Positions 169 to 57,856 of a stretch of DNA of 64,000 nt are shown here, in pieces; the stretch's first letter is position 1; each line of letters starts with the position of its first letter. Below the pieces are notes generated by a model. That model was given only the letters and a program-made list of their open reading frames with translations. It searched no databases and was not told the origin of the DNA. Made by a program: the position numbers and the translations under genes. This stretch comes from an uncultured virus (IMG/VR IMGVR_UViG_3300033170_000477) (lineage: Duplodnaviria; Heunggongvirae; Uroviricota; Caudoviricetes), in IMG/VR virus record IMGVR_UViG_3300033170_000477. One strand, written 5' to 3'.

Positions 169-340
169 CTCAAAAACACTATTTGCAGGAAAGTGATCTT
201 CGAAATCAGTGGATTTTCTAAGTTAAGAACTAAAGTTTAACGATTATTAAGGCTTTTTGCTGTTGAAGTTTATTCAACGGGCAAAAAAAGTAAAAGTATT
301 ATCATTACCATAACAGGAGGACAAACCTCCTGAAATAAAA

Positions 341-540
341 TCTCAATGTCCGAGATGCGCATACGGACGGCGGGATGCATAAGAGTTCAGAACACAGTGA
401 TAAAGACTGTGTTTGGAATGAAGATGCACCCACCGTAATTTCGTGTGCCCTTTTTTAGGACAAGCGGAGTCTGTGGTCATCTTCATCACAGGCTCTTTTT
501 GTATTCCGCCGCCCAATGTCAGGACGGAAAGGAATACTTT
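341..540 (+). ncRNA. Putative structured cis-regulatory leader RNA upstream of the sigma-like gene (copy 1)
   Basis: Several stems; conserved with 57657-57856 including a compensatory change in the RBS-sequestering stem. Confidence 0.6.
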
Positions 541-1089
541 ATGAAGATTCGAGTTTTATATGAAGACAACATCAAAAACGGTCACAAGAACTACACCACA
601 ATTGAAATTCCAGATGGAGATTACAGCGTTATGCTGGACATCGACTATGAGCAGCGTCTTGCAGAGGCAAAGCCTGAAAAGAAAGCAGAAGTTAAGCGTT
701 GTGAGACTTTGCAGGAAATGTTCGATCTTATGAATGCCAAAGAATACAACCACTGGCGCCGCTATCATAGGCATCTTGGCAATCCGAAGACTCCATATCG
801 TAAAGATGATCAGGCTGAAGATGAAACAGATGTTATGGATACATTTGCAGATAACTCTCAAGAAATAGAGCGTTCTAACCAATACGAGTACGAGGATGTT
901 TGTAAATGGATACGCAAGGTACTTGGTAAAAAAGAAGATTGGGCGGATATGTTTATCGCCGTTCGCATAGACGGTATGTCAATCCGTGAATATGCCAGCT
1001 CCATAGGTGCTGATGAAAACAACATTACTCAGAAGTTAAAACGAGCAACAAAAAAATTGGAACAAGAATATAAAAATCGTCAGATTTGA
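541..1089 (+). CDS. Sigma-70 region 4-like / ECF-type sigma-like regulator
   Basis: C-terminal HTH (GMSIREYASSIGADENNITQKLKRA); start at ATG 541 after GGAAAGGA, matching copy 2. Confidence 0.7.
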   Translation: MKIRVLYEDNIKNGHKNYTTIEIPDGDYSVMLDIDYEQRLAEAKPEKKAEVKRCETLQEMFDLMNAKEYNHWRRYHRHLGNPKTPYRKDDQAEDETDVMDTFADNSQEIERSNQYEYEDVCKWIRKVLGKKEDWADMFIAVRIDGMSIREYASSIGADENNITQKLKRATKKLEQEYKNRQI

Positions 1090-8503: not shown

Positions 8504-9043
8504 ATGGCAAAGGACGGTACAGCAAGAGGTGGCCAGCGTGTTGGCGCAGGAAGAAAGTCAAAAGCTCTAACAGATAAAATTACTGACGGCAGATTAAACG
8601 GGGCTCAAGTACTACCGGAGCCAGCAGAAATGGAAGGCACGGATGTTCCTCCAGTAAAAGATTATCTAAAGGCGACTCAGAAAAACGGTAAAGACCTCTG
8701 TGCAGAAGATATTTATATAGAAACCTATAAATGGTTAAAAGATCGTAGCTGCGAAATGTTAGTAAACAACCAGCTGATCGAGCAATATGCCATGAGCGTT
8801 TCTCGTTGGATTCAGTGCGAGGAATGTATTTCAGAATATGGATTTCTTGCAAAGCATCCTACTACATCAGCAGCCATAGCATCACCGTATGTTGCTATGA
8901 GCCGTGAATACATGAAACAAGTAAATCAGTGTTGGTATCAGATATACCAGATTGTAAAAGAAAACTGCTCTGTAGAGTTTGGTGGCAGAAGTCCACAAGA
9001 TGATTTAATGGAGCGGTTACTATCTGCTAGGAAAGGAAAATGA
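8504..9043 (+). CDS. Terminase small subunit (P27 family)
   Basis: RGGQRVGAGRK N-terminus; position after HNH. Confidence 0.75.
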   Translation: MAKDGTARGGQRVGAGRKSKALTDKITDGRLNGAQVLPEPAEMEGTDVPPVKDYLKATQKNGKDLCAEDIYIETYKWLKDRSCEMLVNNQLIEQYAMSVSRWIQCEECISEYGFLAKHPTTSAAIASPYVAMSREYMKQVNQCWYQIYQIVKENCSVEFGGRSPQDDLMERLLSARKGK

Positions 9044-10209
9044 TAATGAAAAAATATAGAACTTGTGAAAGTGTATGTAAAGGTCATCCCGATAAATTGT
9101 GTGACATAATCTCTGACAGCATCTTAGATACGTGTTTGAGAAAAGATAAATCCTCTCGTGTGGCCTGCGAGGTGTTGGCAACCAAAGGACGTATCATTGT
9201 TGCCGGTGAGATTACCTGTTCAAAGAAAATTGATATCAAACGAGTAGTTCGTAATGTACTGACTGACGTAGGCTACAATCCAAGAAAGTTTCTCGTGTTT
9301 GTCCATGTACATCAGCAAAGTAAAGATATCGCAGGTGGTGTTGATAGAGCCTTGGAATCCCGTGAAGGCGATACTTCCTGGTATTCCATGCTAGGTGCAG
9401 GAGATCAAGGCACAGTTTATGGCTATGCCACCAATGAAACAAGTGAGAAGTTGCCGTTACCCCTTGTTCTATCTCATGCTATCTGTGAAAAGCTGGATAA
9501 AGTTATGAAGAATGGTGTTATTAAAAACATCGGTCCAGATGGTAAGGCACAAGTTACAGTAGAGTATAAAGATGATAAGCCAAAGCGGATCAAGACCATT
9601 GTTGTTTCCGTTCAGCACGGTGCTGATAAAGACTTAAATGATTTAAGGAATGAAATCATCTCTCAGGTGCTTTGGCCTGTCTTTGAAAAATATCCATTTG
9701 ATGATGAAACGGAGATACTCATTAATCCAAGCGGGCGCTTTGTGGAAGGTGGACCTGCCGCTGATACAGGATTAACCGGAAGAAAAATAATGGTGGACAC
9801 ATACGGTGGCATTGCATCTCACGGGGGCGGTGCTTTTTCCGGTAAAGACCCGACAAAAGTGGATCGCAGTGGTGCTTATATGGCAAGAGCCATCGCAAAG
9901 AACATTATTTGGTGTGGGTATGCAGAACGATGCCAGGTTGCCATTTCTTATGCAATTGGAAAAGCAGATCCAGTTGCTGTGGAAATTGATACATTTGGAA
10001 CAGGAAAGGTTGCTGAAAGTATCCTTTGTAGTGCGGTTCAAGAAGTATTTAGTCTTAGACCTGCAGCAATTATCGAAAAGTTAAGGTTGACTGATGTCAT
10101 TTATGCGGATACTGCTACCTACGGTCATTTCAGATATGGATTGCATTCTTGGGAGTTTTTAGATTGCTATAAAGAACTAAGGGAGGCGGTAAAAAGGTAT
10201 GTTGATTGA
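9040..10209 (+). CDS. metK: S-adenosylmethionine synthetase
   Basis: GHPDK, GAGDQG, GGGAFSGKDPTKVDRS signatures. Confidence 0.95.
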   Translation: MIMKKYRTCESVCKGHPDKLCDIISDSILDTCLRKDKSSRVACEVLATKGRIIVAGEITCSKKIDIKRVVRNVLTDVGYNPRKFLVFVHVHQQSKDIAGGVDRALESREGDTSWYSMLGAGDQGTVYGYATNETSEKLPLPLVLSHAICEKLDKVMKNGVIKNIGPDGKAQVTVEYKDDKPKRIKTIVVSVQHGADKDLNDLRNEIISQVLWPVFEKYPFDDETEILINPSGRFVEGGPAADTGLTGRKIMVDTYGGIASHGGGAFSGKDPTKVDRSGAYMARAIAKNIIWCGYAERCQVAISYAIGKADPVAVEIDTFGTGKVAESILCSAVQEVFSLRPAAIIEKLRLTDVIYADTATYGHFRYGLHSWEFLDCYKELREAVKRYVD

Positions 10210-11434
10210 AAAAAAGAATACAAAAGACTTGCTTCCTGCTAAATACAATCCTCGTAAAGATTTAAAGCCAGGTGATGCAGAGTATGAAAAGCTGAAACGC
10301 TCGATTGAGCAGTTTGGATATGTGGAGCCGGTTATCTGGAATAAGGTGACAGGCAATGTTGTAGGTGGCCATCAAAGACTTAAAGTACTCATTGATATGG
10401 GTATATCAGAAGTCGAATGCGTCATCATTGAGATGGATGAGGAAAAGGAAAAAGCCCTCAATATTGCTCTAAATAAAATTAGCGGTGATTGGGATAAGGA
10501 TAAGCTTGCCCTTCTGATTGCTGATTTACAAGGTGCAGATTTTGATGTTTCGCTTACTGGATTTGATCCTAAAGAACTGGATGACTTATTTAAAGATACC
10601 ATTAAAGATGGGATTCACGATGATGACTTTGATGTAGATGAAGAATTAAAAAAGCCTGCAATCAGCAAATTTGGTGACGTATGGACGCTAGGTAGGCATC
10701 GGCTGGTATGTGGTGACTCCACAAAAAAAGAAACCTATGATCTGCTGATGAATAAAAACAAGGCGAATTTGTGTGTGACAGACCCTCCCTACAACGTAAA
10801 TTATGAAGGCTCTGCAGGGAAAATCAAAAATGATCATATGACAAATGATGCCTTTTATCAATTCCTCTTAGATGCCTTTATCAATATTGAAGAAGCATTA
10901 GCAGACGATGCATCCATCTATGTATTTCATGCCGACACCGAAGGGTTTAATTTTAGAAAAGCCTTCTCGGATGCCGGCTTTTATTTATCCGGGTGCTGTA
11001 TATGGAAAAAGGACTCCCTTGTACTTGGGCGTTCACCGTATCAATGGCAACATGAACCTGTGCTTTTTGGTTGGAAGAAGAAAGGAAGACATCAGTGGTA
11101 TACGGGAAGAAAAGAAACTACCATATGGGAGTTTGATAAACCAAAGAGAAATGGTGAGCATCCTACGATGAAGCCGATTCCTCTTCTTGCCTATCCTATT
11201 TTGAATTCCTCTATGAGTAACACAATTGTACTCGATCCCTTTGGAGGAAGTGGAAGTACATTAATTGCTTGTGAGCAGTCAGAGCGTATTTGCTACACAG
11301 TGGAACTGGATGAGAAATTCTGTGATGTTATTGTAAAACGCTATATTGAGCAAGTCGGGACTTCAAAAGAAGTAAGTGTTCAAAGGGATGGACTCAGTTA
11401 TAGATATGATGAACTCAAGGAAACTAATGAGTAA
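10199..11434 (+). CDS. ParB-like domain + beta-class N4/N6 DNA methyltransferase
   Basis: YNPR..VGGHQR; DPPY precedes DPFGGSGST; HPTMKP. Confidence 0.9.
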   Translation: MLIEKKNTKDLLPAKYNPRKDLKPGDAEYEKLKRSIEQFGYVEPVIWNKVTGNVVGGHQRLKVLIDMGISEVECVIIEMDEEKEKALNIALNKISGDWDKDKLALLIADLQGADFDVSLTGFDPKELDDLFKDTIKDGIHDDDFDVDEELKKPAISKFGDVWTLGRHRLVCGDSTKKETYDLLMNKNKANLCVTDPPYNVNYEGSAGKIKNDHMTNDAFYQFLLDAFINIEEALADDASIYVFHADTEGFNFRKAFSDAGFYLSGCCIWKKDSLVLGRSPYQWQHEPVLFGWKKKGRHQWYTGRKETTIWEFDKPKRNGEHPTMKPIPLLAYPILNSSMSNTIVLDPFGGSGSTLIACEQSERICYTVELDEKFCDVIVKRYIEQVGTSKEVSVQRDGLSYRYDELKETNE

Positions 11435-11476
11435 GCGAATGTTTATATAATTTCCCACCATATAATCGATAAAAAG

Positions 11477-11510
11477 CTTGATAAATAAGTGTTTTAGAGT
11501 GATATATGTA
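11477..11510 (+). promoter_or_regulatory. Promoter-like motif CTTG..N..TTTTAGAGTGATATATGTA (copy 1)
   Basis: 19-bp exact match with the copy at ~35541-35559. Confidence 0.55.
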
Positions 11511-11537
11511 CATACCAAAACAAAGGAGGTTTTGTAC

Positions 11538-12230
11538 ATGATCATTAATTATAACGTAACAGGGTCAGAGCGTAAGAGGTTAGTGACAGCACTTAGTGAC
11601 ATCACAGGTGTTAAAGCAAAGTACCTTGGAATGCCAAGCATGGCTTATGAGGTTGGTGCCTTTATCATCGACAAGAATGGGAACCTTGAATTTAGTGATA
11701 AGGCAGATGGCGAAAAAATCGAAAACGTGGCCCAGTGTTTGGCAAGGGAGGGTTTTATCGCAGAGGAACAAATTAACACCACTGAGGGCAAAAAAACCGC
11801 AGACAGCGAGGCTTTAAGCCTTTGCATATCAATGCCAAGGAGTAGCTTTACAGAAAAGGCACTTGAAAACCTAAAAGCGATTGTTGAGGCAAAAGGCGAT
11901 CTTATCCGTCATGCACTAGAAGCAGAAGACTTACCTGTTGAAATTTCTGAAGATGAAGTTTCATTCCCATGGTTTAAAGAAATACCAACACCAGAAGAGG
12001 TTAAGGCTTACAACCATTTTATTTCTGGGCTTTGCGAGATGGCAAGAAACCAGAAACGCATTACTGCAAAAGAAAAGGAAATCCCAAATGAAAAATACGC
12101 ATTTAGATGCTTTTTACTCCGCCTTGGCTTTATTGGCAAAGAGTATAAAGAAGAACGAAAAATATTGCTCAGAAATCTAACCGGTTCTGCGGCATTCAAA
12201 GGAGGAGTAAAAAATGAGGATAATCAGTAA
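11538..12230 (+). CDS. Conserved phage protein (often annotated virulence-related)
   Basis: RBS AAGGAGG; C-terminal NEKYAFRCFLLRLGFIG.EYK..RK.LL.NL.G. Confidence 0.65.
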   Translation: MIINYNVTGSERKRLVTALSDITGVKAKYLGMPSMAYEVGAFIIDKNGNLEFSDKADGEKIENVAQCLAREGFIAEEQINTTEGKKTADSEALSLCISMPRSSFTEKALENLKAIVEAKGDLIRHALEAEDLPVEISEDEVSFPWFKEIPTPEEVKAYNHFISGLCEMARNQKRITAKEKEIPNEKYAFRCFLLRLGFIGKEYKEERKILLRNLTGSAAFKGGVKNEDNQ

Positions 12231-23682: not shown

Positions 23683-26205
23683 GTGGCCATTAAGTCGATT
23701 TTAACAGTGCAAACAGATTTTACAGGCGAGTTTCCAGTAAGTGCTCAGACCGCTGGACTTTGGCGATTTAATGAATCAGCACCAGATGGAAACACCATGC
23801 TTTTAGATGCGTCAGGCAATAACAGAAACTTCTTTGTATCCGGATGGTCAGGAACTTCAGCTAGTTTGGTCTTAGGTAGACTTGGAAGATTTTTCAGGCA
23901 AAACATTGTCAACCCTACAAGTGAAAGAACCCATTTAGTGGCTACCAATGACGGTAGTTTTTTTAGTGATTTAGGAGAAAAAATCGTAGTGGGTGGATGG
24001 ATTAACCCGACAACTTATTCTATTGGTCAAAATTTTATTCCCATCTTTAATACCAGACATGGACCAGGACAGCCGATTTTCTATGTTTCCTTATACCAAG
24101 GAAGATTAAGACTAATGCTTTACAATGCATCGGGTTCGCTGATTTATGATCAAACGGAAACACCAAGTATTACCCTTAGGAATAATGGTTGGTATTTTAT
24201 AGCGTCCATTATTGAAGTAAATAGCAAAAGAGTACAAAATTTGGTCTGTGACCGAAGTGATGGTGCTATTTGGCAATCGCCCATTAGAACTTTTACCGGA
24301 GATTTGAATCAAAATTGTGTTGCCAATATTGTCATGGGAATGCTGGCTGATACTTATTATTATGCTGGTGGATTTGATGATTGGTTTTATGAAAAGAATT
24401 CTGAGCTTACCATGGAGGAGCTTATTTCCTACTTCAAATCTTCTATCTTGGCAAACGGTGGTGACAGTACCGCTGATGTAGATGCTCTAACGGAGCCGGG
24501 TACTGTTATGCTGAAAGCAACAAGTGGTGTTTATGCTCAAAATGGTCAGCTTTATACAACCGCAGCTGCCTGTGGTCTTGCAGGAACAGGACGAGTATCA
24601 GTAACCAGCGAATACACAGCAGGGGTAACTGCTATCTCCCTTGTTGAAACCTCTACCTCTGATGATTTAGTCAGTTGGACACAGTGGCAGTCAGTGGGAC
24701 CCAGCGGAGAACTTCAGTCACCGAATAGAGCTTATATTCGTTATCGAATTACTTTGACCACTCAAGATATAACGAGAACACCTAAGCTTATAGAAATACA
24801 GCTTCATGATATTCCGAAACCACCTTATGAGAGGCTCGGATTTGCAAGACCCGTTGTTTTGGATACCAACGGTGCGTGGGAAGCGGTGTTAGAAAATGCC
24901 TTTGACATCATTGTAACCAGTGAGGTAAACGGTGCTGATATCTTGGAGTTTAAGTTGCCATTTCATGATTCCAAGCGAGAGTCCCTAGATAATGAGAAAC
25001 AGGTGCAGATTGTAAATGATGTGTACCGAATTCGAACCACGACAGATGAGAAAACTTCTGATGGTCGAGTGATTACACAAGTGTATGCGGAAGCTGCCTT
25101 TTATGATCTTTCATTCAGCGCGGCAAAAGAGCCGATGGATTTTGTCGCTGAAACACCAGAGGCTCCTATACATTATGCCCTGCTTGGTACAGGGTGGGCT
25201 TTAGGGAACGTAACGGTAAGTACAAGGAGAACATGGCAATCTACCGAGAAAAACGCGCTATCAATTCTTCGAGCCACACAGAACATTCATGGTGGAGATT
25301 TAATATTTGATAGTGCCAATAGGTTGGTGCATCTTTTGACATTTGGTGGTACAGACAGTGGAGCCTTGTTTTGCTATAGAAAAAACATGAAAAGCATTCA
25401 AAGGGTAGTAGATACAAGAAGCTTAATTACTCGACTTTATGCGTATGGAAAAGATGGGATGACATTTGCCTCTATCAATGGCAATAAAGAATATGTGGAG
25501 GACTACAGTTACTCATCAGAAGTAAGAGTGGCAACCCTTGATGCCTCATCCTTTAGCAATCCTTATCAGATGCTCGAGTTTGCTAATATGCGATTAGCAC
25601 AGTATTCAAGGCCTAGAATTTCCTATGTTCTTTCAGCTATGGATTTATCTGTGCTGACGGGATATGAACATGAAGCTTGGAATCTTGGAGATATCGTTAC
25701 CGTGGATGATAAAGACTTAAATCTGTCAGTAAAAACTCGTGTGGTGCGCAGGCAGTACAATCTACAAGAACCATGGAAAACAGTACTGGAGCTATCCACC
25801 ACCTTAAGAGAATTAGGGGATGCATCTGCTGGGTGGGATAAAGCTGCCGATATTTTATCCTCAGCCGATGTCCTTGACAGGCAGGAAGTAAAAGATTTAG
25901 TCCCCTTTAACCATCTAAGAAATTCAAGAGCCGATGACGGGATCACCTACTGGCTCAATTCAGGGTTTGATGTTGATCCAAACAATGGTGTCTCAGGAGA
26001 TGCTTCCTTTAAAGCTGATGGGGTTTTAGGCATGACAAAAAGTCTATCTCAAACTATCTATCCAGCAAGTAGGAGGAGTTACACATTCTCAGCTCAGATT
26101 GCATCAGAGAATCTTCAAAAAGGCCCTAATGGGCAAGTCGGCATTGAAGTTATGATTGAATACGAGGATGGTACAACCGAAACAAGGTTTATTGATCTCT
26201 TTTAG
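23683..26205 (+). CDS. Tail spike/Tal-like protein with N-terminal LamG-like domain
   Basis: GLWRFNE..DASGNN; YRKNMKSIQR..ITRLYAYGKDG; LGDIVTV. Confidence 0.75.
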   Translation: MAIKSILTVQTDFTGEFPVSAQTAGLWRFNESAPDGNTMLLDASGNNRNFFVSGWSGTSASLVLGRLGRFFRQNIVNPTSERTHLVATNDGSFFSDLGEKIVVGGWINPTTYSIGQNFIPIFNTRHGPGQPIFYVSLYQGRLRLMLYNASGSLIYDQTETPSITLRNNGWYFIASIIEVNSKRVQNLVCDRSDGAIWQSPIRTFTGDLNQNCVANIVMGMLADTYYYAGGFDDWFYEKNSELTMEELISYFKSSILANGGDSTADVDALTEPGTVMLKATSGVYAQNGQLYTTAAACGLAGTGRVSVTSEYTAGVTAISLVETSTSDDLVSWTQWQSVGPSGELQSPNRAYIRYRITLTTQDITRTPKLIEIQLHDIPKPPYERLGFARPVVLDTNGAWEAVLENAFDIIVTSEVNGADILEFKLPFHDSKRESLDNEKQVQIVNDVYRIRTTTDEKTSDGRVITQVYAEAAFYDLSFSAAKEPMDFVAETPEAPIHYALLGTGWALGNVTVSTRRTWQSTEKNALSILRATQNIHGGDLIFDSANRLVHLLTFGGTDSGALFCYRKNMKSIQRVVDTRSLITRLYAYGKDGMTFASINGNKEYVEDYSYSSEVRVATLDASSFSNPYQMLEFANMRLAQYSRPRISYVLSAMDLSVLTGYEHEAWNLGDIVTVDDKDLNLSVKTRVVRRQYNLQEPWKTVLELSTTLRELGDASAGWDKAADILSSADVLDRQEVKDLVPFNHLRNSRADDGITYWLNSGFDVDPNNGVSGDASFKADGVLGMTKSLSQTIYPASRRSYTFSAQIASENLQKGPNGQVGIEVMIEYEDGTTETRFIDLF

Positions 26206-35579: not shown

Positions 35580-37148
35580 ATGATGAAAAAGATAACGAAA
35601 ATAGATGGACTGCCCAAATCACAGTCATCAAAAAGCAAACTTCGAGTTGCCGCTTATGCAAGGGTTTCAACGGATAGTGATGACCAGCTGGTAAGCCTTA
35701 AAGCTCAGCGGGAACACTATGAAAACTATATTAAATCCAATCTAGAATGGGAATTTGCCGGGCTTTATTATGACGAAGGCATATCAGGCACCAAAAAGGA
35801 AAAACGACCTGAACTTCTCCGGATGATTCGTGATTGTGAAAGTAATAGGATTGATTTTATTATCACCAAATCCATCAGTCGTTTTGCACGAAATACCACG
35901 GATTGCTTAGAGCTGGTAAGACAGCTCTTAAATATCGGTGTTTTCATTTATTTCGAGAAAGAAAATCTCAATACAGGCGATATGGAAAGCGAGTTAATGC
36001 TTTCTATTTTATCTGGTTTTGCTGCTGAAGAGTCCGCGTCTATTTCACAGAACACAACATGGTCAATCAGTAAAAAGTTTCAAAATGGCAGTTACATTAT
36101 TGGCACTCCGCCATATGGCTATGCAAACGTAAATGGTGAGATGGTTATTGTTCCTAAAGAAGCTGAAATAATCAAACGTGTTTTTGCAGAGTGCCTTTCA
36201 GGGAAAGGTGGAAGTGTTATCGCAAAAGGCCTAAATAGAGACAAAATCCCTGCAAGAAGGGGCAATCATTGGAGTTCGGGTACGGTGATTGATATGCTCC
36301 GCAACGAAAAATACAAAGGTGATGTGCTTTTCCAAAAGACCTACACGGATAGCAACTTCAATCGACACATTAACAATGGAGAGAAAGATCAGTTTTACTG
36401 CAAGGATCATCATGAACCGATCATCAGCAGAGAAGTATTTTCCAAGGCTCAAAAGCTGATAACTCAAAGAGCAAAATCTATGAGCAAAACTGCTAACAAG
36501 AAAGCTTATCAAAACAGGTATGTGCTAAGTGGCAGAATCCTATGTGGAGAGTGCGGCAGTAAATTCAAGAGAAGAACAAACTACTCTGTTGGCAGAAGTT
36601 ATATTGCTTGGAGCTGCAAAGGACACATTGAAGACAAGGACAGCTGCTCCATGTTATTTTTGCGTGATGGAGAGATAAAAGCAACATTCTCAACCATGAT
36701 GAATAAGCTCGCATTCAGCAAAAAGCTAATACTGGAGCCACTTTATGATTCTATAAACAAGATTGATGAAGAATGCGATCTTGCAAGAATTGATGCCATA
36801 GATAAACGCATGGAGCAATTAACCGAAGAACGCAATACACTGATTGGTCTTATGACAAAAGGGTTTCTTGAACCAGCTCTTTTTAACAAGGAACGAAATG
36901 TTCTGGATAAAGAAATAAAAAATATTACTGCTGAGAAGACGAACCTAGTCATGTCATTTACAAGTGGCTCTTCTCAGGCAGATGAGGTAAAGGCACTTCT
37001 TGATTATGTGTCAGCAGATAAGTTTGATGGCAATTATACAGATGAAGCTTTTGAGAAGTTTGTAGAAAACATCATTGTAAATTCAAGGGATGAACTCACC
37101 TTTAAAATGAAATGTGGACTTTCCCTTATAGAAAAGGTGGTGAGATAA
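35580..37148 (+). CDS. Large serine recombinase
   Basis: YARVST catalytic Ser, [14 protein letters not shown], recombinase domain, CGECG zinc ribbon. Confidence 0.95.
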   Translation: MMKKITKIDGLPKSQSSKSKLRVAAYARVSTDSDDQLVSLKAQREHYENYIKSNLEWEFAGLYYDEGISGTKKEKRPELLRMIRDCESNRIDFIITKSISRFARNTTDCLELVRQLLNIGVFIYFEKENLNTGDMESELMLSILSGFAAEESASISQNTTWSISKKFQNGSYIIGTPPYGYANVNGEMVIVPKEAEIIKRVFAECLSGKGGSVIAKGLNRDKIPARRGNHWSSGTVIDMLRNEKYKGDVLFQKTYTDSNFNRHINNGEKDQFYCKDHHEPIISREVFSKAQKLITQRAKSMSKTANKKAYQNRYVLSGRILCGECGSKFKRRTNYSVGRSYIAWSCKGHIEDKDSCSMLFLRDGEIKATFSTMMNKLAFSKKLILEPLYDSINKIDEECDLARIDAIDKRMEQLTEERNTLIGLMTKGFLEPALFNKERNVLDKEIKNITAEKTNLVMSFTSGSSQADEVKALLDYVSADKFDGNYTDEAFEKFVENIIVNSRDELTFKMKCGLSLIEKVVR

Positions 37149-37565
37149 ATGGCATATGTACCATACGGATATACAGTTAAAGACGGAGTCATAACTGTCG
37201 ATGAGAAGGCAGCAGGTCAAGTAAAGGAGTTCTTTGAAAAATATATATCAGGACTTTCCCTTACAGTGGCTGGTGAACAGGCAGGTATTGAGAAGACGCA
37301 TTCAGTAATGGGGCGTATTTTGAAAAATATCCTTTATCTCGGAAATGACGTATATCCAGCAATCATAGATAAAGAAACATTTGATAAGGCTGAAGAGATT
37401 AGAAATAAACGTGCGAAGGACTTAGGGCGGATTGTAGAGCTTGCAGCTTTTACTGCTCCCTCACCTATAGAACGATTCAAGATGAGAAAATCAGAAGGTA
37501 AACTTCCAGATGATCCCGTTACAAGAGCGGAGTACCTATATAGTTTGATAGAAAGCGAGGTGTAA
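37149..37565 (+). CDS. Recombinase-domain-only accessory protein
   Basis: VPYGY, IL.N..YLG..YPAIID; no catalytic domain. Confidence 0.8.
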
Positions 37566-37566
37566 T

Positions 37567-39129
37567 ATGGCAGGAAAAAATATAACTGTAATTCCGGCAC
37601 GAAAAAGAGTTGGAAGTACAGCCGCAAAAGAAAAAATAAAGAAACTGCGTGTCGCTGCCTATTGCCGTGTTTCTACAGAAACTGAAGAGCAGAATTTAAG
37701 CTATGAGGTACAGGTTGCACATTATACGGAATTTATAAAGAAAAATACTGAATGGGAGTTTGCAGGCATCTTTGCAGATGACGGCATTTCCGGTACTAAC
37801 ACTAAAAAACGAGAAGAGTTCAACCGTATGATTGAGGAGTGTATGGAGGGCAACATCGATTTAGTTATTACAAAGTCCATCAGTCGATTTGCCCGCAACA
37901 CGCTGGATTGCTTAAAGTATATTAGACAGCTCAAGGAAAAGAACATAGCAGTGTATTTTGAAAAAGAGAACATCAACACAATGGATGCCAAGGGCGAGGT
38001 GCTACTTACCATTATGGCCTCTCTTGCACAACAAGAAAGCCAGAGCCTTTCGCAGAACGTTAAACTTGGACTTCAATATCGCTACCAGCAAGGAAAGGTG
38101 CAGGTCAATCACAATCGATTTATGGGATACACAAAAGATGAAGAAGGCAACTTGATTATTGTTCCAGAAGAGGCTGAAATCATTAAACGTATTTACAGAG
38201 AGTACCTTGAGGGCAAGAGTCTAGTGGGCATCGGCAGGGATCTAGAGAAAGACAGCATTTTAACAGCTGCAGGTAAACCAAGATGGAGACCAGAAACCAT
38301 AAAGAAGATTCTTCTAAACGAGAAATACATCGGCGATGCCCTGTTGCAGAAGACTTTCACAGTGGATTTTCTTACAAAGAAACGAGTCAAGAATGAAGGT
38401 CATGTCCCGCAGTATTATGTTGAAAATAGCCATGAGGCGATCATACCAAAGGAACTTTTTTTACAGGCTCAGGAAGAGCTTCATCGCAGAAGTAATATTT
38501 ACACAGGTGCAGACAAGAATAAAAGAATTTATAGCAGTAAATACGCTTTGAGTACCATAACCTTCTGTGGAGATTGTGGTGACATATACAGACGGGTCTA
38601 TTGGAATATTCACGGTAGAAAAGAATTTGTTTGGCGATGCGTTACAAGAATTGAGCAAGGCCCTGAGGTGTGTAAGAACCGAACGGTAAAAGAAGCTGAA
38701 TTATATGATGCAGTAATGACTGCCATTAACAGATTGCTAGCCGGTGGTGACAACATGATAAGAATACTGGAAGAGAATATACATGCGATAATTGGTGATA
38801 CCACGGAATATAAGATTTCAGAGATTAACACCTTGCTTGAAGAAAAGCAGAAGGAACTAATCAGCCTTGCTAATAAGGGAAAAGATTTTGAATCCCTTGC
38901 AGATGAGATTGAAGAGTTACGTGAAAAACGTCAGACCCTTCTTGTGGAAGATGCATCCTTAAGTGGTGAGAATGAGCGAATCAACGAACTGATAGAATTT
39001 ATTTGCACCAACAAATATCGGACTTTACTATATGATGATACCCTTGTAAGGAAGATCATCCAAAATGTTACGGTGTATGATGACCACTTTGTAATATGCT
39101 TTAAATCAGGCATTGAAATTAAAGTATGA
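37567..39129 (+). CDS. Large serine recombinase
   Basis: [33 protein letters not shown]. Confidence 0.95.
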
Positions 39130-39145: not shown

Positions 39146-39182
39146 GCCCATGACTCTAGAATAGAGTTGTGGGTTTTCTTTG
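39146..39182 (+). terminator. Rho-independent terminator after recombinases
   Basis: GCCCATGACTCT/AGAGTTGTGGGT followed by TTTCTTT. Confidence 0.7.
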
Positions 39183-39269
39183 CGCGTCCGGTATTGGACA
39201 ACTGGGCTGCAGTTGGAAAAAATCATTACAGTGCTCCAGTAGACTTTGTAGACCGGCAAGTACCTTTAT

Positions 39270-39458
39270 TTAAAATGCAGAGCATGAAGTTAAAGTCAAC
39301 GCATTATAAAAATGGATGAGTTCTTGAATGAGCAGTCATGCGAGCTAGAGGAATATGATGAACAGCTGGTAAGGTGACTTATTGATAAGATTACGGTGTT
39401 TGAATAAAAAATTACTGTTGAGTTTAATTCAGGTGTCGAGGCTGAGGTGGATTGTAAA
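39270..39458 (+). pseudogene. Decayed C-terminal fragment of another large serine recombinase
   Basis: MDEFLNEQSCELEEYDEQLVR*LIDKITVFE*KITVEFNSGVEAEV aligns by eye with the C-terminus of 37567-39129. Confidence 0.75.
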
Positions 39459-45940: not shown

Positions 45941-47560
45941 ATGACTAACGAGATTGAAAAAAACACCTTTGAATACTTAGATTTATTTAGAGGGTTTACT
46001 GAGAGTGACTCCTATCTTCCTGCTGCGCTTCTTGTGGCTGAAACAAAGGAAGAGTACTTTGACAAAAATATTTATGATGATTCAGAAGAGCGAATCTACG
46101 AGACTATGCTGACAGTTGCAGATAGGCTCGATATTATTAACCCGTTTAGAGATAAGACACAATTTACCAGAGTGTATAATGCCTATGATGTTTTTAAGGG
46201 AGAGGTCAACTGGGAATTGATTATTGCCCAGAGTGATAGAAGATATGGTGGGTACTCAGTAATTTCTAATGCTCTATCTGAAGAGTACGGCAGTCGCTTT
46301 AAACTTGACGCAGATGAGGTTCTTATTGCCGAAGGGGAAAAATTCGCTCCAAATCTAAAGAAACTAATCGATGAACATCCTGGTTGCAACTATACCATTA
46401 CAACTGAAGAAAAAATCAGTTTTCACATAATTAACAGAATTTTTGCTGGTTATAAAAATGTAAAAATATTGAATGCAAGTATATATCAATACGGTTTCAC
46501 AAACAGTCGTTACGATCTTATATTCTCTGTACCTAATTTCGGAACAAGAAATCTTGCTGAAGATGAAAATTTTATGAGTAGAGATCAAGATGCGGTAGCG
46601 CTTGAAAACCTGCTTCTTCATACAAATAATGGTGGTGAGCTTATAATCACAATGCCGGCTAGAATCACATTTGCTCATGGAAAGATTGGAGTGCTTAGGC
46701 AGTTTGTTCAACAGACTTATCGCTTAAAAGAAATTACAGAACTTCCAGAAGGTGCGTTTGAAGGAACAGGGATTAAAACTTACCTTATCGATGTAGTAAA
46801 TACCAAGCCAGGTGATGATGATGTGATAGTCCGTCGATATAAATCTGGTCCTCGTAAGAACAAACGTGATATGGCTAATAAATTTATTATCGATGAAGAA
46901 ACATTCGTTATGTTAGAGGAACTTGAGGAACTTGGTGATTGGAGTATAAATAAAATATTCTCTCAGCAAGATGAAGAGTGGATAAAATTCCAAGAATCAT
47001 CTATTCGTAAAATTGCTTTGGGAGATGTTGCTGAAGTTTTCCGAGGAAAATCAGTATCAAAAAAAGACCCAACCGGAAGTGTTGGTGTCGTTAACATCTC
47101 GAATATAGGTGATTACGATATTGATTATGATAGTCTAGATCACTTTGATGAAGAAGAACGTAAGATTTCAAACTACATTCTTAAAGAAGGTGACGTACTA
47201 ATACCTGCAAGAGGAACTGCAATTAGAACCTCTATCTTTCGCGAGCAGAGCTATCCATGCATCGCTTCATCTAACATCATTGTAATCCGACCTGAAGTAA
47301 AAATGCTTAGCAGCGTGTATTTAAAATTGTTCTTAGACAGCCCTCTTGGGCAAAAGATGATAAGTGGTGTACAACAAGGAAGTACAGTAATTAATATCAG
47401 CTATAAAGACTTGAATGCCTTGGAAATACCTGTTCCTTCAATTGAAGAACAACATATGAAGGCTGATGAATATGAAAAAGAGTTAGAAATCTACAAAGAA
47501 ACTGTTGAGGTTGCTGAAAAGCGCTGGAATAAAGTTTTAGATAAGCTACGAGAACTTTAA
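45941..47560 (+). CDS. Degenerate N6-MTase-like domain fused to a single HsdS-type TRD
   Basis: YDLIFSVPNFG in place of NPPF, ITELPEGAF..TGIKT; C-terminal LGDVAEVFRG...LEIPVPSIEEQ. Confidence 0.65.
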   Translation: MTNEIEKNTFEYLDLFRGFTESDSYLPAALLVAETKEEYFDKNIYDDSEERIYETMLTVADRLDIINPFRDKTQFTRVYNAYDVFKGEVNWELIIAQSDRRYGGYSVISNALSEEYGSRFKLDADEVLIAEGEKFAPNLKKLIDEHPGCNYTITTEEKISFHIINRIFAGYKNVKILNASIYQYGFTNSRYDLIFSVPNFGTRNLAEDENFMSRDQDAVALENLLLHTNNGGELIITMPARITFAHGKIGVLRQFVQQTYRLKEITELPEGAFEGTGIKTYLIDVVNTKPGDDDVIVRRYKSGPRKNKRDMANKFIIDEETFVMLEELEELGDWSINKIFSQQDEEWIKFQESSIRKIALGDVAEVFRGKSVSKKDPTGSVGVVNISNIGDYDIDYDSLDHFDEEERKISNYILKEGDVLIPARGTAIRTSIFREQSYPCIASSNIIVIRPEVKMLSSVYLKLFLDSPLGQKMISGVQQGSTVINISYKDLNALEIPVPSIEEQHMKADEYEKELEIYKETVEVAEKRWNKVLDKLREL

Positions 47561-47574
47561 TAGGAGGTATCATT

Positions 47575-49992
47575 ATGTTAGGAGCTATTATCGGGGATAT
47601 CGTGGGTTCCCGTTTTGAATGGAATAATAACAAGAGTAAGCAATTTGATTTATTAACTTATAAATGTAGTGTTACCGATGATTCCATAATGACTTTAGCT
47701 ATAGCTAAAGCGCTGTTAGAAAGCAAGTCGGATTATAGTGACTTATCCGAAAATGCTGTAAAATACATGCAGAATATCGGACAACACTACCCAAACTGTG
47801 GGTATGGTGGGCATTTCAGAGAATGGATATATTCTGACAATCCAAAACCATATAACAGCTATGGTAATGGGGCAGCGATGCGTGTCAGTGCATGTGGATT
47901 CGTAGCAAATACCCTGGAAGAAGTGAAACAACTATCAAAAGCTGTGACAGAAGTAACACACAATCATCCTGAGGGGATAAAGGGTGCAGAGGCAACAGCT
48001 GTTGCTATCTTCCTGGCGCGTTCTGGAAAGAATTTGCTAGAGATTCGCGACTATATAACAAAGAATTATTACCCGTTGAATTTTTCCCTTGATGAAATAC
48101 GTGATAATTATGAGTTTAATGAGAGCTGTCAGGGAACTGTTCCTCAAGCCTTGGAAGCTTTCTTCGAGTCGAAAAATTTTGAAGATGCAATTCGTAACGC
48201 CATATCAATTGGTGGCGATAGCGATACCCTTGCAGCTATTACAGGTGGTATCGCAGGAGTTTACTATGGAATACCTACAGATATTAGAAAACATGCTCTG
48301 ACCTTCCTTGACGAGCGCCTACTTAAGATTTTGGTAGAGTTTGAAAATAATTATCCATCAAAGATGGAAAAAATCAATTCAGTCGGTAGTATTGGCATCG
48401 AAAGAAATGCAGAGACCAAAGTGAAGACAGGGAATAGAAAAACTATGATGCAGTCCTCTGTAGAAATAGCAGAGAAAGAACTAATTGATTCGATTCCTAC
48501 AAATGAAGAGACGACAAGCCAGCAACTATTTAATCATCTATTCGAGGCTTGTAATATTCTGCGAGGACCAATAAACCAAGATGAGTATAAAAGTTATGTG
48601 ACTCCAATCCTCTTTTTTAAGAGAATTAGTGATGTTTATGACGAAGAAACTCAAGATGCACTTGAGCGCTCTGGTGGAGATGAGGAGTATGCTAGATTTC
48701 CCGAGAACCACAGTTTTGATATTCCTGTGGGATGCCACTGGCAAAATGTCAGGGAAGCAAGTGAAAATGTTGGTGTTGCAATCGTCAAAGCAATGAATGG
48801 TATTGAGCGTGCTAACCCAGATACTTTAAGTGGTGTGTTCAGTAGCTTTGATGATGCTAATTGGACTGACAAAACTAAACTCTCAGACGAGAGACTAAAA
48901 AATTTAATAGAACATATGTCAAAAATTAAAGTTGGTAATGCGAATTACTCAGCTGATGTTATGGGAGATAGTTATGAATTTCTGATTAAGAAATTTGCTG
49001 ATTTATCAAAAAAGAATGCTGGTGAATTTTATACCCCACGCTCCATTGTCAAACTTCTCATCATGCTTCTGGATCCAAAGATTGGTGAAACAGTCTATGA
49101 TCCAGCTTGTGGAACTGGAGGAATGCTAATAGAAGCCATACGGTACATGAAAAACGATAAAATGACGTATGGCCGAATATATGGTCAGGAGAATAATCTA
49201 TCTACATCTGCAATTGCTAGAATGAATTTGTTTTTGCATGGTGCAAAGGATTTTAAGATTACACAAGGTGATACACTGCGTTCTCCTAATTTTCTTGAGA
49301 AAGGTAAATTAAAAACTTTCAATTGCGTTGTAGCGAATCCTCCCTTTTCGTTGAAAAAATGGGGTTCACAACAATTTAGCACAGATATATATGGTCGAAA
49401 CATGTGGGGAACCCCAACTGACTCCAATGCTGATTTTGCATGGCTGCAACACATGGTGAAGTCGATGGACGAAAAAACCGGCCGTTGTGCTGTTGTTTTA
49501 CCACAAGGTGTACTATTCCGTGGGGGTAGAGAAGCAGAAATTCGCAAACAACTGATTGAATCAGACAAGCTGGAATGCATTATTACACTGGTAAGCGGCG
49601 TGTTCTATTCAACTGGAGTATCAGCTTGTATTCTTTTTCTAAACAATAACAAGAAAAATGATCATAAAGGTCGTATATGCATGATCGATGGTTCTGATAT
49701 ATTCACAGCACAACGAGCACAAAATATAATGACCGACAATGACATAGAGAAGGTCTACAATTTGTATGACGATTATAAAGATGTTATTGAAAAAGTAAAA
49801 GTGGTCACGATTCCCGAAGTGAAAGACAAGGGCTATAGTCTAGCGATCAATAATTATATTGAAAGAAAAGAACAAGAAATTACTCCTCCAGCTGAAATAA
49901 GAAAACAGTATTTTGATGCACTTGAAAAAATGATTGAGGCTGAAAAAATAATGATGGAATTATTGCTTGAAGGAGGATATGTCAATGAGTAA
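47575..49992 (+). CDS. hsdM: ADP-ribosylglycohydrolase (DraG/ARH) fused to Type I MTase subunit M1
   Basis: ARH motifs GAIIGDIVG, TDDS, GNGAAMR, GGDSDT; HsdM motifs GEFYTP, DPACGTGG, NPPF. Confidence 0.9.
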   Translation: MLGAIIGDIVGSRFEWNNNKSKQFDLLTYKCSVTDDSIMTLAIAKALLESKSDYSDLSENAVKYMQNIGQHYPNCGYGGHFREWIYSDNPKPYNSYGNGAAMRVSACGFVANTLEEVKQLSKAVTEVTHNHPEGIKGAEATAVAIFLARSGKNLLEIRDYITKNYYPLNFSLDEIRDNYEFNESCQGTVPQALEAFFESKNFEDAIRNAISIGGDSDTLAAITGGIAGVYYGIPTDIRKHALTFLDERLLKILVEFENNYPSKMEKINSVGSIGIERNAETKVKTGNRKTMMQSSVEIAEKELIDSIPTNEETTSQQLFNHLFEACNILRGPINQDEYKSYVTPILFFKRISDVYDEETQDALERSGGDEEYARFPENHSFDIPVGCHWQNVREASENVGVAIVKAMNGIERANPDTLSGVFSSFDDANWTDKTKLSDERLKNLIEHMSKIKVGNANYSADVMGDSYEFLIKKFADLSKKNAGEFYTPRSIVKLLIMLLDPKIGETVYDPACGTGGMLIEAIRYMKNDKMTYGRIYGQENNLSTSAIARMNLFLHGAKDFKITQGDTLRSPNFLEKGKLKTFNCVVANPPFSLKKWGSQQFSTDIYGRNMWGTPTDSNADFAWLQHMVKSMDEKTGRCAVVLPQGVLFRGGREAEIRKQLIESDKLECIITLVSGVFYSTGVSACILFLNNNKKNDHKGRICMIDGSDIFTAQRAQNIMTDNDIEKVYNLYDDYKDVIEKVKVVTIPEVKDKGYSLAINNYIERKEQEITPPAEIRKQYFDALEKMIEAEKIMMELLLEGGYVNE

Positions 49993-52601: not shown

Positions 52602-52625
52602 ACTTAATGATAGGAGGGAATATTT

Positions 52626-55535: not shown

Positions 55536-55549
55536 TAGGAGGTCTGCCT

Positions 55550-57596: not shown

Positions 57597-57656
57597 GAAG
57601 GAAATCTTGTTTCAAATTATGATGTTAATAGAAGCTGAAAACTTCTAATAAACCAG

Positions 57657-57856
57657 TCTCAAAGTCCGAGATGCGCATTAGGACGGCGGGATGCATAGAG
57701 AGTTCAGAACACAGTGATAGAGACTGTGTTTGGAATGAAGATGCACCCACCGTAATTTCGTGCGCTCTTTTTTAGGACAAGCGAAGTTTGTGGTCATCTT
57801 ATCCGCAGGCTCTTTTGCATTCCGCCACCCATTACTGGGACGGAAAGGAATGCAAA
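57657..57856 (+). ncRNA. Putative structured leader RNA (copy 2)
   Basis: Homolog of 341-540; 11-bp stem TTTTGCATTCC/GGAATGCAAAA covers the RBS region and start A. Confidence 0.6.

Follow-up and report, generated by a model that had tools for sequence, protein, structure and literature searches.

What is the role of a conserved non-coding leader of about 200 nt that precedes the first gene in each of two prophages on one stretch of DNA? In the 64-kb window analysed here (the whole stretch of 64,000 nucleotides, IMG/VR record IMGVR_UViG_3300033170_000477), this leader is present twice, as copy A (341-540) and as copy B (57657-57856). An earlier note had proposed that it adopts two mutually exclusive folds which switch the translation of a sigma-like gene, and every coordinate and string quoted there was located in the window sequence. 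The analysis points to a cis-regulatory RNA switch family that appears to be undescribed, as suggested by compensatory changes in its helices together with zero matching Rfam families. The features are listed in Table 1.

Table 1. Features of the leader region, by position in the window
Feature	Position	Strand	Position in copy B	Remark
Inverted repeat CAGGAGG-ACAAA-CCTCCTG, then A-rich stretch	313-332	+		sequence varies between phages
Copy B dyad AGAAG-CTGAAAA-CTTCT	57630-57646	+		counterpart of 313-332
Leader 5′ edge, UCUCAAU	341-347	+	57657 (start) to 57663 (end)	family-wide sequence conservation begins here
P0 hairpin, GUCC 348-351/GGAC 365-368	348-368	+	57664-57684	
Self-complementary P0 loop AUGCGCAU	355-362	+		
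S1 GGACGGCGGGAUGCAU	365-380	+	57681-57696	pairs with S2 or S3
P2 apical hairpin, 385-388/416-419 and 391-398/406-413	385-419	+	57702-57736	
S2 AUGCACCCACCG	424-435	+	57741-57752	OFF-fold partner of S1; almost invariant
U-tract 451-456, then AGGAC	451-461	+	57768-57773 (U-tract)	conserved
T2 hairpin, 466-476/486-496, loop 477-485 UCAUCUUCA, U run to 500	466-500	+	~57783-57815	
S3 UGUAUUCCGCCGCCC	500-514	+	57816-57830	shared strand: S1 (ON) or S4 (OFF)
S4 GGACGGAAAGGAAUAC	522-537	+	57838-57853	Shine-Dalgarno AAAGGAA 528-534; predicted hidden by S3 in the OFF fold
Downstream gene, 182-aa protein	541-1089	+		C-terminal sigma-region-4-like HTH; putative regulated gene
Leader copy B	57657-57856	+		precedes second prophage; 212.4 bits with covariance model R1
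Copy B downstream gene	57857-58399	+		

Setting and distribution of the leader

Copies A and B can be aligned almost without gaps from about 340 and 57656, respectively, to beyond the start codon, and the 100 bases 5′ of the leader do not align between them. The DNA upstream had been described as unrelated, which holds for its sequence but not for its form, given that a tendency to inverted repeats is shared. Each copy is found 5′ of the first gene of its own siphovirus-type prophage; in these two related prophages, the genes for a sigma-region-4-like HTH protein, a Rha-type regulator, a primase, a helicase and the late functions follow rightward, and the leader heads an array of co-oriented genes of ~39 kb (at the right end of prophage A, conservation reaches only to 39181). 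A type I restriction-modification cluster lies upstream of copy B. In one related phage (L079) the protein is 100% identical, yet the sequence upstream of window position 339 differs, and a variable cargo slot is a better reading of the DNA 5′ of the leader than an attachment site. The leader itself was also considered as an attachment site adjoining a recombinase, a candidate that was rejected in this simple form: of 80 loci inspected over the 1.5 kb downstream of recombinase homologues, none had the leader there. Moreover, a promoter scan found no sigma-70-like promoter on the + strand in the 340 bases upstream of copy A or the ~350 bases upstream of copy B (0 sites in each), and the candidates picked by eye disagreed between the families of upstream sequences.

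Records of phages, genomes and metagenomes from across Bacillota yielded a total of 133 distinct leader copies, the hosts being, by record titles, Clostridia, Bacilli, Erysipelotrichia, Negativicutes and Tissierellia. The leader was present in 127 of the 149 loci retrieved via the protein, in 77 of the 83 viral contigs retrieved with an anchor pattern placing no constraint on the leader interior, and in seven of the 151 Bacillota genomes sampled and searched with model R1 (~5%). A looser pattern scan of metagenomes returned 120 loci, only four of them with true leaders. The conservation of the leader exceeds that of the protein it precedes, with identities to the window of 68% (protein) and 93% (leader) in L041, 66% and 92% in L045, and 53% and 87% in L058. 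Furthermore, hardly any variation was seen in the hairpin loop UCAUCUU or in unpaired segments such as GAAGAUGCACCCACCG. Recombinational exchange among mosaic phages could account for part of this very high identity, which would then not stem from RNA function alone.

The comparison with Rfam proposed in the earlier note yielded no family matching the leader: with Rfam 15, cmscan gave no match at gathering score in the entire 64-kb window, and with E values up to 10 only five chance-level matches appeared between 200 and 700, involving snoRNA, lncRNA and sRNA models (9.8-19.6 bits against cut-offs of 50-80). A narrow full-text search over listings and the starts of abstracts returned no description of the leader, and PMC11283538, searched by term, gave no occurrence of sigma, riboswitch, non-coding, recombinase, lysogen or Rha.

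The downstream protein matches phrog_11138 (PHROGs; function unknown) and, weakly, phrog_79, a Q-like antiterminator family (E 8.5e-4), and it scores 20.5 bits (A) and 24.6 bits (B) with Pfam Sigma70_r4_2, below the cut-off of 25.7. Sigma region 2 had no match in Pfam, NCBIfam or PHROGs, and neither the domain searches nor the structure search found an RNA-binding domain. In the predicted structure (pLDDT 68.9), a beta hairpin and helices form the N-terminal half, residues 71-111 are disordered, and any resemblance to sigma region 4 (SigR, SigE) or a KorA-type HTH is confined to the last ~60 residues; the likeness to region 4 of SigR and SigE reached TM 0.64-0.82 (target-normalised), with no Foldseek match in PDB at E ≤ 0.001. 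A leader peptide or upstream ORF, including a PPP-coding reading of S3, was considered and rejected, no frame being conserved: the ORF from GUG 473 is open to the Shine-Dalgarno (SD) sequence in 64 of 78 representatives and the other two frames in 61 and 69, and the GUG 473 peptide shifts frame with indels between relatives.

Helices competing for a shared strand

Two folds were predicted for the leader. In the OFF fold, S1 (365-380) and S2 (424-435) would close a 70-nt hairpin domain, the hairpin 466-496 would form, its U run then resembling an intrinsic terminator in the window copies, and S3 (500-514) would bury the SD by pairing with S4 (522-537). In the ON fold, S1 and S3 would form a long-range helix of 15 positions, and with S1 occupied by S3, S4 and the start codon would be free. 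The minimum free energies (MFE) were −83.9 (copy A) and −82.7 kcal/mol (copy B), compared with −56.4 and −54.6 kcal/mol for dinucleotide shuffles (z = −6.2 and −6.9, respectively), none of 200 shuffles being as stable. Over 119 distinct sequences, the OFF structure was 94.4% paired (34-46% with slid partners) and contained 175 compensated cells, compared with 41.8 in shuffles, of which 0 out of 500 reached 175, a significance that is overstated because the leader sequences are related and the shuffle controls ignore kinship. The MFE structures of these homologues contained S1:S2 in 112 cases, T2 in 103, S3:S4 in 89 and S1:S3 in five, the last helix thus being rarely the predicted optimum.

The stem covering the ribosome-binding site had been noted for a compensatory change between the copies, GTATTCC (501-507)/GGAATAC (531-537) in copy A corresponding to TTTTGCATTCC (57813-57823)/GGAATGCAAAA (57847-57857) in copy B. 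This was borne out across homologues, as U502C occurred together with A536G in 30 of the 119 sequences and A503G together with U535C in 12, while six of the seven S3:S4 pairs were altered on both sides in the model-fitted alignment with distant members. The S3:S4 hairpin alone had −14.2 kcal/mol, and the SD-complementary strand was retained in all sequence classes.

The strand CGGCGGGATGCA (368-379) had been assigned two alternative partners, ATGCACCCACCG (424-435) and TGTATTCCGCCG (500-511), and all three strands were confirmed. Its pairing with 424-435 was found in the MFE structure and in divergent sequences, but close relatives offered no compensatory pair (0 of 11, with an uncompensated change in 19 of the 119 sequences). 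With distant members, seven of the 11 S1:S2 pairs covaried, in an alignment fitted to an S1:S2-containing structure; the compensations include G377A with C427U (L478 and L482) and G373A with C430U (L478). The pairing with 500-511 exists and is longer than the 12 bp claimed, spanning 15 positions (365-379/500-514) with one A.C mismatch and two G.U pairs, and the RNAalifold consensus of 98 homologues picked this helix, not 368-380/424-435. Pairs of S1:S3 altered on both sides numbered 4 of 15 in the 119 sequences, 5 of 15 in 72 representatives (leaders under 95% identical) and 9 of 15 when distant members were included; about three to four independent compensatory events were judged, from the sequences, to have occurred among close relatives. 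Moreover, the distant leaders retrieved by covariance-model search retain all three helices with rewritten sequence. This is the case of L033, where GGCAAAGGAUACA stands opposite UGUAUCCUUUGCC, and one distant leader has S1:S3 wholly rewritten into a perfectly complementary 13-bp helix, while in L478 the change G373A is matched also by C506U in S3.

Each substitution in S3 was Watson-Crick-compensated in one helix and tolerated as a wobble in the other. In this regard, U502C, which accompanies A536G in P3 (S3:S4), changes G.U to G-C in S1:S3, and A503G, which accompanies U535C in P3, yields U.G in S1:S3 (C-G in three sequences). Since S3, common to both covarying helices, cannot pair with S1 and S4 together, two exclusive folds are under selection, in agreement with the mutual exclusivity put forward earlier. 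The collected homologues thus displayed compensatory changes in S3:S4 and S1:S3, and in S1:S2 only with divergent sequences. In alignment A6, the pairs altered on both sides were 38 of 50 for the OFF fold and 32 of 45 for the ON fold, compared with ~20 in shuffles. The duplex energies of cognate strands were lower than those of swapped ones for S1:S3 (−19.7 vs. −12.8 kcal/mol), S1:S2 (−14.9 vs. −9.7) and S3:S4 (−14.4 vs. −12.0). The ON fold lay above the OFF fold by a median of 6.3 kcal/mol in the 119 homologues (−78.7 vs. −83.9 kcal/mol in the window), and its predicted pairings 419-426/478-485, 381-387/491-497 and 430-435/471-476 were 95-100% pairable and nearly invariant.

Within the domain, P2 (arms AACACAGT, 391-398, and ACTGTGTT, 406-413) had nine of 12 pairs altered on both sides in the 119 sequences and all of the 11 counted pairs in the 72 representatives. 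T2 was terminator-like in the window copies according to a terminator scan, with a GC-rich hairpin followed by TTTTTGTATT (−16.2 kcal/mol, z −5.0); 3 of its 10 pairs were altered on both sides in the 119 sequences, 6 in the 72 representatives and 8 with distant members. A U run of at least four followed T2 in 57 of 78 representatives and was absent in the most distant class (L062, L130, L135); as it is not kept across the family, termination cannot be the family-wide mechanism. As for what generally characterizes riboswitches, a structured sensor domain with covariation was found in P2, T2 and the closing helix S1:S3, and exclusive pairings involving the SD were found in S3 with either S1 or S4. 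A swap of the P2 arms with those of T2 (CACAG/CUGUG) was considered and rejected by eye, P2 varying freely and T2 not.

A probable bistable leader weighed against its alternatives

With a probability of about 0.6, the leader acts in cis as a bistable 5′ RNA on the first gene in the long rightward operon of the prophage, and it is probably an on/off switch in which the ribosome-binding site is either hidden or exposed. We infer that a single transcript starting 5′ of 348 covers the leader, that the folds of the leader control translation of the downstream gene, and that the switch runs from OFF to ON. As local hairpins would form first and prediction gives the OFF fold as the ground state, expression would be off by default, which would suit a gene needing silence in the lysogen. 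The ON fold would require a factor that stabilizes the S1:S3-closed domain or captures S2, and the same factor might perhaps permit read-through of the hairpin 466-496; as candidates for the trigger we consider a small ligand, a protein and another copy of the RNA, which would kiss via the palindromic loop. The leader is located where the phage decides on expressing replication and late genes, and at this end of the prophages bearing it no repressor-operator module is obvious. Were the switch model correct, this little-understood prophage group would gain a small RNA element amenable to testing, and the identity of the trigger would reveal what these phages sense. With three mutually constrained helices, the putative undescribed RNA family could also become a new entry in RNA family databases.

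A true riboswitch would be a special case of this explanation, with a named trigger class: the S1:S3-closed domain 365-514 would be the aptamer, a universal small molecule or ion would be recognized by the nearly invariant junction nucleotides and by the pairing AAGAUG 421-426/CAUCUU 478-483, and its binding would switch translation on. It is a possible but doubtful version. Nearly invariant unpaired segments over broad host classes are expected for such a universal contact, and the ~6 kcal/mol needed for the ON fold is of a size that a ligand could supply. S2 plus 420-423 is complementary to the T2 loop, and the six core positions of this loop-junction pairing are 97-100% pairable, with compensating changes in three leaders (L064, L033, L060); however, its single changes comprise nine incompatible besides seven wobble-compatible ones, and U480C or U480G breaks the pairing in L522, L478 and L221. 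Moreover, the invariance of S2 is equally explained by its need to pair with S1, the gene context gives no clue to a ligand, as the neighbours are only phage regulators, and the leader resembles no Rfam riboswitch. On a broader scale, and rather tentatively, the leader might be an orphan riboswitch-like sensor used by a widespread family of temperate Bacillota phages, some of them gut phages listed under Ca. Heliusvirales, to detect a universal signal of the host directly by RNA and to gate their first early regulator. What is sensed could be a metabolite, ion or alarmone, or else how much leader is present, through palindromic-loop kissing, and it would constitute an input to the lysis-lysogeny decision bypassing repressor cleavage.

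Alternatively, the fold could be set by a phage or host RNA-binding protein, in a circuit of autoregulation or of antitermination-type feed-forward likened to that of lambda N at nutL, the candidates being the sigma-region-4-like product, Rha or an early protein of the other arm. This is consistent with the position before the first regulatory gene of the ~39-kb array, with the terminator-like hairpin plus a conserved GCUCUUU-containing strand, and with the weak phrog_79 match; besides, the symmetric internal loop AAGAG/UGAAG could, from its sequence, give tandem G.A pairs, which are a common protein-binding motif. Nevertheless, we regard it as unlikely, since a leader 87-95% identical before a protein 53-68% identical is the opposite of what a co-evolving phage partner predicts, the downstream protein yielded no RNA-binding domain, and the host range is too broad for CsrA-like factors (CsrA is not known from some of the hosts concerned). 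It is very unlikely that the element is mainly static or works mainly at the DNA level, as the junction between cargo slot and phage core, a recombination linker or an operator, with the palindrome and the upstream dyad as protein sites, fixed terminators as an insulator and RNA folds that are incidental. The abrupt start of conservation at ~340 beside a region variable among near-identical phages (L079), the restriction-modification cluster preceding copy B and the palindromes and dyads, typical of DNA operators, would fit such an element, but it leaves unexplained the compensation across 120-140 bases (S1:S3) and 30 bases (S3:S4), the 9-11 covarying P2 pairs and the SD-complementary strand kept in all classes, and the leader was never found shortly downstream of a recombinase gene in the 80 loci. 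Finally, a stable sRNA of ~155 nt that ends at hairpin 466-496 and acts in trans (e.g. in immunity), the gene being reached by read-through only, is hardly credible. The hairpin followed by U5 in the window agrees with it, as does one RNA run in which the contig depth was 31.7 over 356-537, compared with 8.45 over 559-934 and 15.8 over 559-644, these depths being a poor measure, as the RNA evidence consists of assembled contigs, which cannot show transcript ends and whose depth differences are unreliable. The contig starts near AATCTCA in two RNA runs are likewise explicable by assembly-graph branching at the boundary between conserved and variable sequence. Against an sRNA, the U run is kept in only 57 of 78 representatives, covariation runs beyond the hairpin into S3 and S4, and the search of the 64-kb window for trans partners of S1 and S2 gave, apart from the leader's own strands, only a site with three mismatches within a tail gene (25321-25336).

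Known leaders and smaller elements

The putative bistable leader shares traits with several known systems. The add adenine riboswitch of Vibrio vulnificus, a translational ON riboswitch, adopts the more stable OFF fold when in its apo state. In both, a domain-closing helix and an SD-hiding helix compete for one strand, the OFF fold is the more stable and a stabilized closed domain exposes, or would expose, the ribosome site. In contrast to add, the leader has a putative sensor domain of ~150 nt with no Rfam match and no ligand assigned, its 5′ strand has a third partner (S2), and its context is that of a prophage regulator and not of metabolism. In the ermC and trp attenuator leaders there are also four strands, where 1:2 plus 3:4 is the inactive state and an alternative frees strand 4, whereas the alternative here would be 1:3 instead of 2:3 and would leave strand 2 looped out, and the phage leader has no conserved leader peptide. 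Similarly, structured RNA precedes the first regulatory gene in the lambda N leader (nutL plus an RNase III-sensitive structure) and in HK022 put, where terminator-like elements are combined with control of the translation of that gene, as would be the case here. The defining activity of lambda N and HK022 put is terminator read-through by a modified polymerase, and unlike in lambda, no N-like protein was identified in the present prophages.

Some elements went beyond those of the earlier note, namely the hairpin 466-496, the self-complementary loop 355-362, the possible loop-loop pairing and the variable dyad upstream. P0 was 99.8% paired in the 119 sequences, with two of its four pairs altered on both sides (GUCC/GGAC to GUCU/AGAC) in the alignment including distant members. 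Its palindrome was complementary in all of the 119 sequences, with CG at the centre (358/359) in 100 and GC in 19, and other self-complementary loops were AUGGCCAU, AUAGCGCUAU, GGCGCC, AUGUGGCCACAU, GGUGGCCACC, GCUGGCCAGC, UUGCAA and UGCGCA. In this loop only, the leader is comparable to the HIV-1 DIS kissing loop, a self-complementary hairpin loop of 6-12 nt whose variants remain self-complementary; in contrast, P0 belongs to a bacterial mRNA, and its pattern, as a sequence, would equally suit an operator in the DNA that a dimeric protein binds. A U run of at least four was kept at 451-456 in 70 of 78 representatives, and a stem 357-367/436-450 that would turn this U-tract into a terminator was rejected, being only 79% paired and leaving the palindrome changes uncompensated.

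Regarding the upstream dyad, a perfect inverted repeat with arms of at least five bases was found in 62 of 96 distinct upstream sequences, compared with frequencies of 25% (control window) and 21% (shuffles), and these repeats end ~10-15 bases 5′ of the conserved block. The dyad could be an operator-like site or a hairpin at the 5′ end of the transcript; as a hairpin, that of copy A had −11.8 kcal/mol (z −4.75), and that of copy B was weak (z −0.9).

Structure and covariation of the leader

The two copies of the leader, a non-coding block of about 200 nt lying before a sigma-region-4-like gene, aligned almost without gaps from about position 340 (copy A) or 57656 (copy B) into the coding region, while the 100 bases located 5′ of each copy did not align with each other. 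This confirmed the conserved leader with unrelated upstream DNA described in an earlier note made from the sequence alone, whose strings and coordinates were all correct when checked against the window. The minimum free energies were −83.9 and −82.7 kcal/mol for copies A and B (z = −6.2 and −6.9, respectively), with none of 200 shuffles being equally stable. The elements of copy A are listed in the table, where S1 to S4 are the competing strands and P0, P2 and T2 are local hairpins. The OFF fold consists of S1:S2, T2 and S3:S4, while the ON fold consists of S1:S3. The latter was predicted at −78.7 kcal/mol in the window, with nearly every strand re-paired; its additional pairings beyond S1:S3 were 95–100% pairable and almost invariant, so they are proposed only as hypotheses. 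Besides, the first hairpin domain contains a symmetric internal loop, AAGAG/UGAAG (381–385 with 419–423), that could form tandem G·A pairs, and each of its strands is complementary to a part of T2 (CUCUU, 493–497, and CUUCA, 481–485).

Positions of the leader elements and neighbouring features in the window
Feature	Position	Details
Leader, copy A	341–540	
Leader, copy B	57657–57856	
P0 hairpin, copy A	348–351 / 365–368	loop with palindrome AUGCGCAU (355–362)
S1 strand, copy A	365–380	partner S2 or S3
P2 apical hairpin, copy A	385–388 / 416–419 and 391–398 / 406–413	
S2 strand, copy A	424–435	S1 partner in OFF fold
U-tract and AGGAC, copy A	451–461	
T2 hairpin (terminator-like), copy A	466–476 / 486–496	loop 477–485; followed by U496–U500
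S3 strand, copy A	500–514	partner S1 or S4
S4 strand, copy A	522–537	Shine-Dalgarno sequence at 528–534
Start codon, copy A	541	
Predicted ON-fold pairings	381–387 with 491–497; 418–426 with T2 loop; 430–433 with 473–476	together with S1:S3
Tandem large serine recombinases	35580–39129	522 and 520 aa; 138-aa ORF with partial recombinase domain between
Hairpin with U-rich tail	39148–39174	−21.3 kcal/mol; 3′ of second recombinase gene
Type I restriction-modification cluster	45941–57463	directly 5′ of copy B leader; two specificity genes, two methylase genes, restriction subunit
Methylase fused to N-terminal ADP-ribosylglycohydrolase domain	47575–49992	within the type I cluster

Covariation was evaluated on alignment A3, comprising 119 distinct sequences after five very divergent ones (loci L033, L062, L063, L130 and L132) had been dropped. 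The OFF structure was 94.4% paired on A3, compared with 34–46% when the partners were slid, and it showed 175 compensated cells against 41.8 in shuffles, none of 500 reaching that number, although these counts are not probabilities because the sequences are related. Changes on both sides of a pair were found in 9 of 12 pairs of P2, 3 of 10 of T2, 2 of 7 of S3:S4 (with a further 2 of 5 in the inner portion of this helix) and 4 of 15 of the long-range helix S1:S3, the one chosen by the RNAalifold consensus. Among 72 representatives less than 95% identical, the corresponding figures were 5/15 for S1:S3, 11/11 for P2 and 6/10 for T2, and only a handful of independent compensatory events were judged to underlie S1:S3 among close relatives. 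When distant members were included, the alignment was model-fitted to the OFF structure, and is thus biased towards it and not fitted to the ON helix; on this alignment, 38 of 50 pairs changed on both sides (20.9 in shuffles), including 6/7 for S3:S4 and 8/10 for T2, while S1:S3 reached 9/15. The closing pairing S1:S2 put forward in the earlier note was therefore sustained in part, with 7 of 11 pairs changing on both sides on the OFF-fitted alignment but 0 of 11 among the close relatives of A3. On the other hand, the mutually exclusive pairings of the anti-Shine-Dalgarno strand S3, either with the ribosome-binding site or with S1, were borne out by covariation in both S3:S4 and S1:S3.

Moreover, hand checks of divergent leaders showed that in L033 the S1 core GGCAAAGGAUACA stands opposite UGUAUCCUUUGCC in S3, giving 13 perfect pairs with most positions altered, and that in the L130 class AGACGGCGGA stands opposite UCCGCCGUCU. 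In locus L478, G373A was matched by both C430U in S2 and C506U in S3, and G377A was matched by C427U in L478 and L482. In eight divergent leaders, cognate partners paired more stably than swapped ones in S1:S3 (−19.7 vs. −12.8 kcal/mol), S1:S2 (−14.9 vs. −9.7) and S3:S4 (−14.4 vs. −12.0). Furthermore, substitutions in S3 were compensated by Watson-Crick pairs in one helix and tolerated as G·U wobbles in the other, as expected of a strand with two partners.

Spread of the leader among phages

The leader was present in 127 of 149 loci fetched through the protein (blastn), and a profile search recovered it from 207 of the 270 sequences then collected, in 124 distinct versions. Of the 83 viral contigs matching an anchor pattern with a free interior, 77 contained the leader, and a total of 133 distinct leaders was gathered. 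The covariance model built here (R1) identified full-length, very divergent leaders before distant homologues of the gene, from L033 (54.5 bits) through L062, L135, L130 and L063 to L060 (34 bits), and, among 151 genomes sampled from the phylum, it matched 7 (7 of 129 genera). According to the record titles, the hosts were Clostridia, Bacilli, Erysipelotrichia, Negativicutes and Tissierellia, and the related records included Streptococcus phage Javan630, Erysipelothrix phage phi1605 and a Ruminococcus phage filed under Ca. Heliusvirales. Near-identical copies of gene and leader also appeared in bins titled Methanolobus, Dissulfurispiraceae, Thermotogaceae and Micrarchaeota, which are likely binning contamination and not true hosts. 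A narrow full-text literature search found no description of the leader. In contig C6 of genome G093, two leaders (11361–11561 and 77764–77958) lie about 66 kb apart, resembling the tandem arrangement of the window.

Conservation is higher in the leader than in the protein downstream, with identities to the window of 93% vs. 68% (L041), 92% vs. 66% (L045) and 87% vs. 53% (L058) for leader and protein, respectively, to which recombinational exchange of the block between mosaic phages could contribute in part. It was also found before proteins with unalignable N-termini in 14 loci, where the similarity to the leader profile ends near the Shine-Dalgarno region, so the leader seems to move as a unit of its own, independently of the gene body. 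Upstream of the leader, the sequences (loci L001–L268) belong to a few discrete families common to otherwise different phages.

A probable default-OFF switch and its alternatives

In general terms, the leader is most likely a default-OFF switch, a model to which we give a probability of about 0.6; what we infer in it is how far the transcript extends, that translation is affected and in which direction the switch works. The local hairpins would be the first to form, sequestering the ribosome site, and in the window they may in addition halt the polymerase at position 500, while a factor stabilizing the domain closed by S1:S3, or capturing S2, would expose the Shine-Dalgarno sequence. Among the predicted optima of the 119 sequences, S1:S2 appeared in 112, T2 in 103, S3:S4 in 89 and S1:S3 in 5, and forcing S1:S3 rather than S3:S4 had a median cost of 6.3 kcal/mol (interquartile range 3.7–10.8). 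Folded in isolation, T2 was stable (−16.2 kcal/mol, z = −5.0), and a run of at least four U followed it in 57 of 78 representatives but was missing in the most distant class; attenuation is thus not the family-wide mechanism, and it may occur at T2 in the window copies. The leader would work in a manner analogous to translational ON riboswitches and four-segment leaders such as that of ermC, but it is a member of neither, since a scan against Rfam, a check named in the earlier note, gave no family match, no conserved leader peptide was found in the family, and the alternative pairing is 1:3 instead of the 2:3 of four-segment leaders. It recalls the lambda N leader in that it precedes the first regulator of a long phage operon.

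A small-ligand riboswitch would be a special case of the switch model with the trigger named, and is considered unlikely; operation of the leader by a protein is still more doubtful. Least probable, even when taken jointly, are a mainly DNA-level element and a trans-acting small RNA. The loop of P0 is self-complementary in every class, with variable sequence and length (6–12 nt); its palindrome centre reads CG in 100 of 119 sequences and GC in the other 19, and is complementary in all. This is compatible with a kissing loop at the RNA level as well as with a DNA site bound by a dimer. Of 96 distinct upstream sequences, 62 carry a dyad of variable sequence that lies 10–15 bases 5′ of the conserved block; this dyad may serve as a phage-specific operator, or else form the 5′ hairpin of the transcript. 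A consensus scan of the plus strand gave no promoter-like site upstream of either copy. In the window, this dyad, conserved in form and variable in sequence, corresponds to the inverted repeats at 313–332 (copy A) and 57630–57646 (copy B), followed by an A-rich stretch.

The downstream protein and the prophage context

The 182-aa protein downstream of the leader, described in the earlier note as sigma-like and as the likely master regulator, is at most a candidate for these roles: its likeness to sigma region 4 is limited to the last ~60 residues, with Pfam scores below the cut-off, and no region 2 was found. Its structure model was of modest confidence (pLDDT 68.9).

Copy A heads a co-oriented gene run of about 39 kb typical of a temperate siphovirus, which begins with this protein, a Rha-type regulator, DUF7768, a VapE-type primase and an SNF2 helicase, continues with a DUF1492/RinA-like late regulator, terminase, portal, ClpP, capsid, tail genes and amidase, and ends with a DUF2800 nuclease, a family A polymerase and the two serine recombinases. 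The conserved right end of this prophage extends to 39181, just past the strong hairpin and its U-rich tail; farther on, at 39266–39451, is the 3′ end of another gene for a serine recombinase, as if the prophage were beside or within the remnant of an older element. Position 340 as an attachment-site boundary was disfavoured, as none of 80 recombinase homologues had the leader within 1.5 kb downstream. An S-adenosylmethionine synthetase gene and, after it, one for a DNA methylase bearing a ParB-like domain at its N-terminus occupy 9040–11434, just before the packaging genes. Copy B heads a second, related prophage extending beyond the end of the window, with Trk transporter and two-component genes between both prophages. 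Finally, directly 5′ of copy B, a 637-aa protein of phage family phrog_4031, of unknown function, accompanies the restriction-modification cluster.
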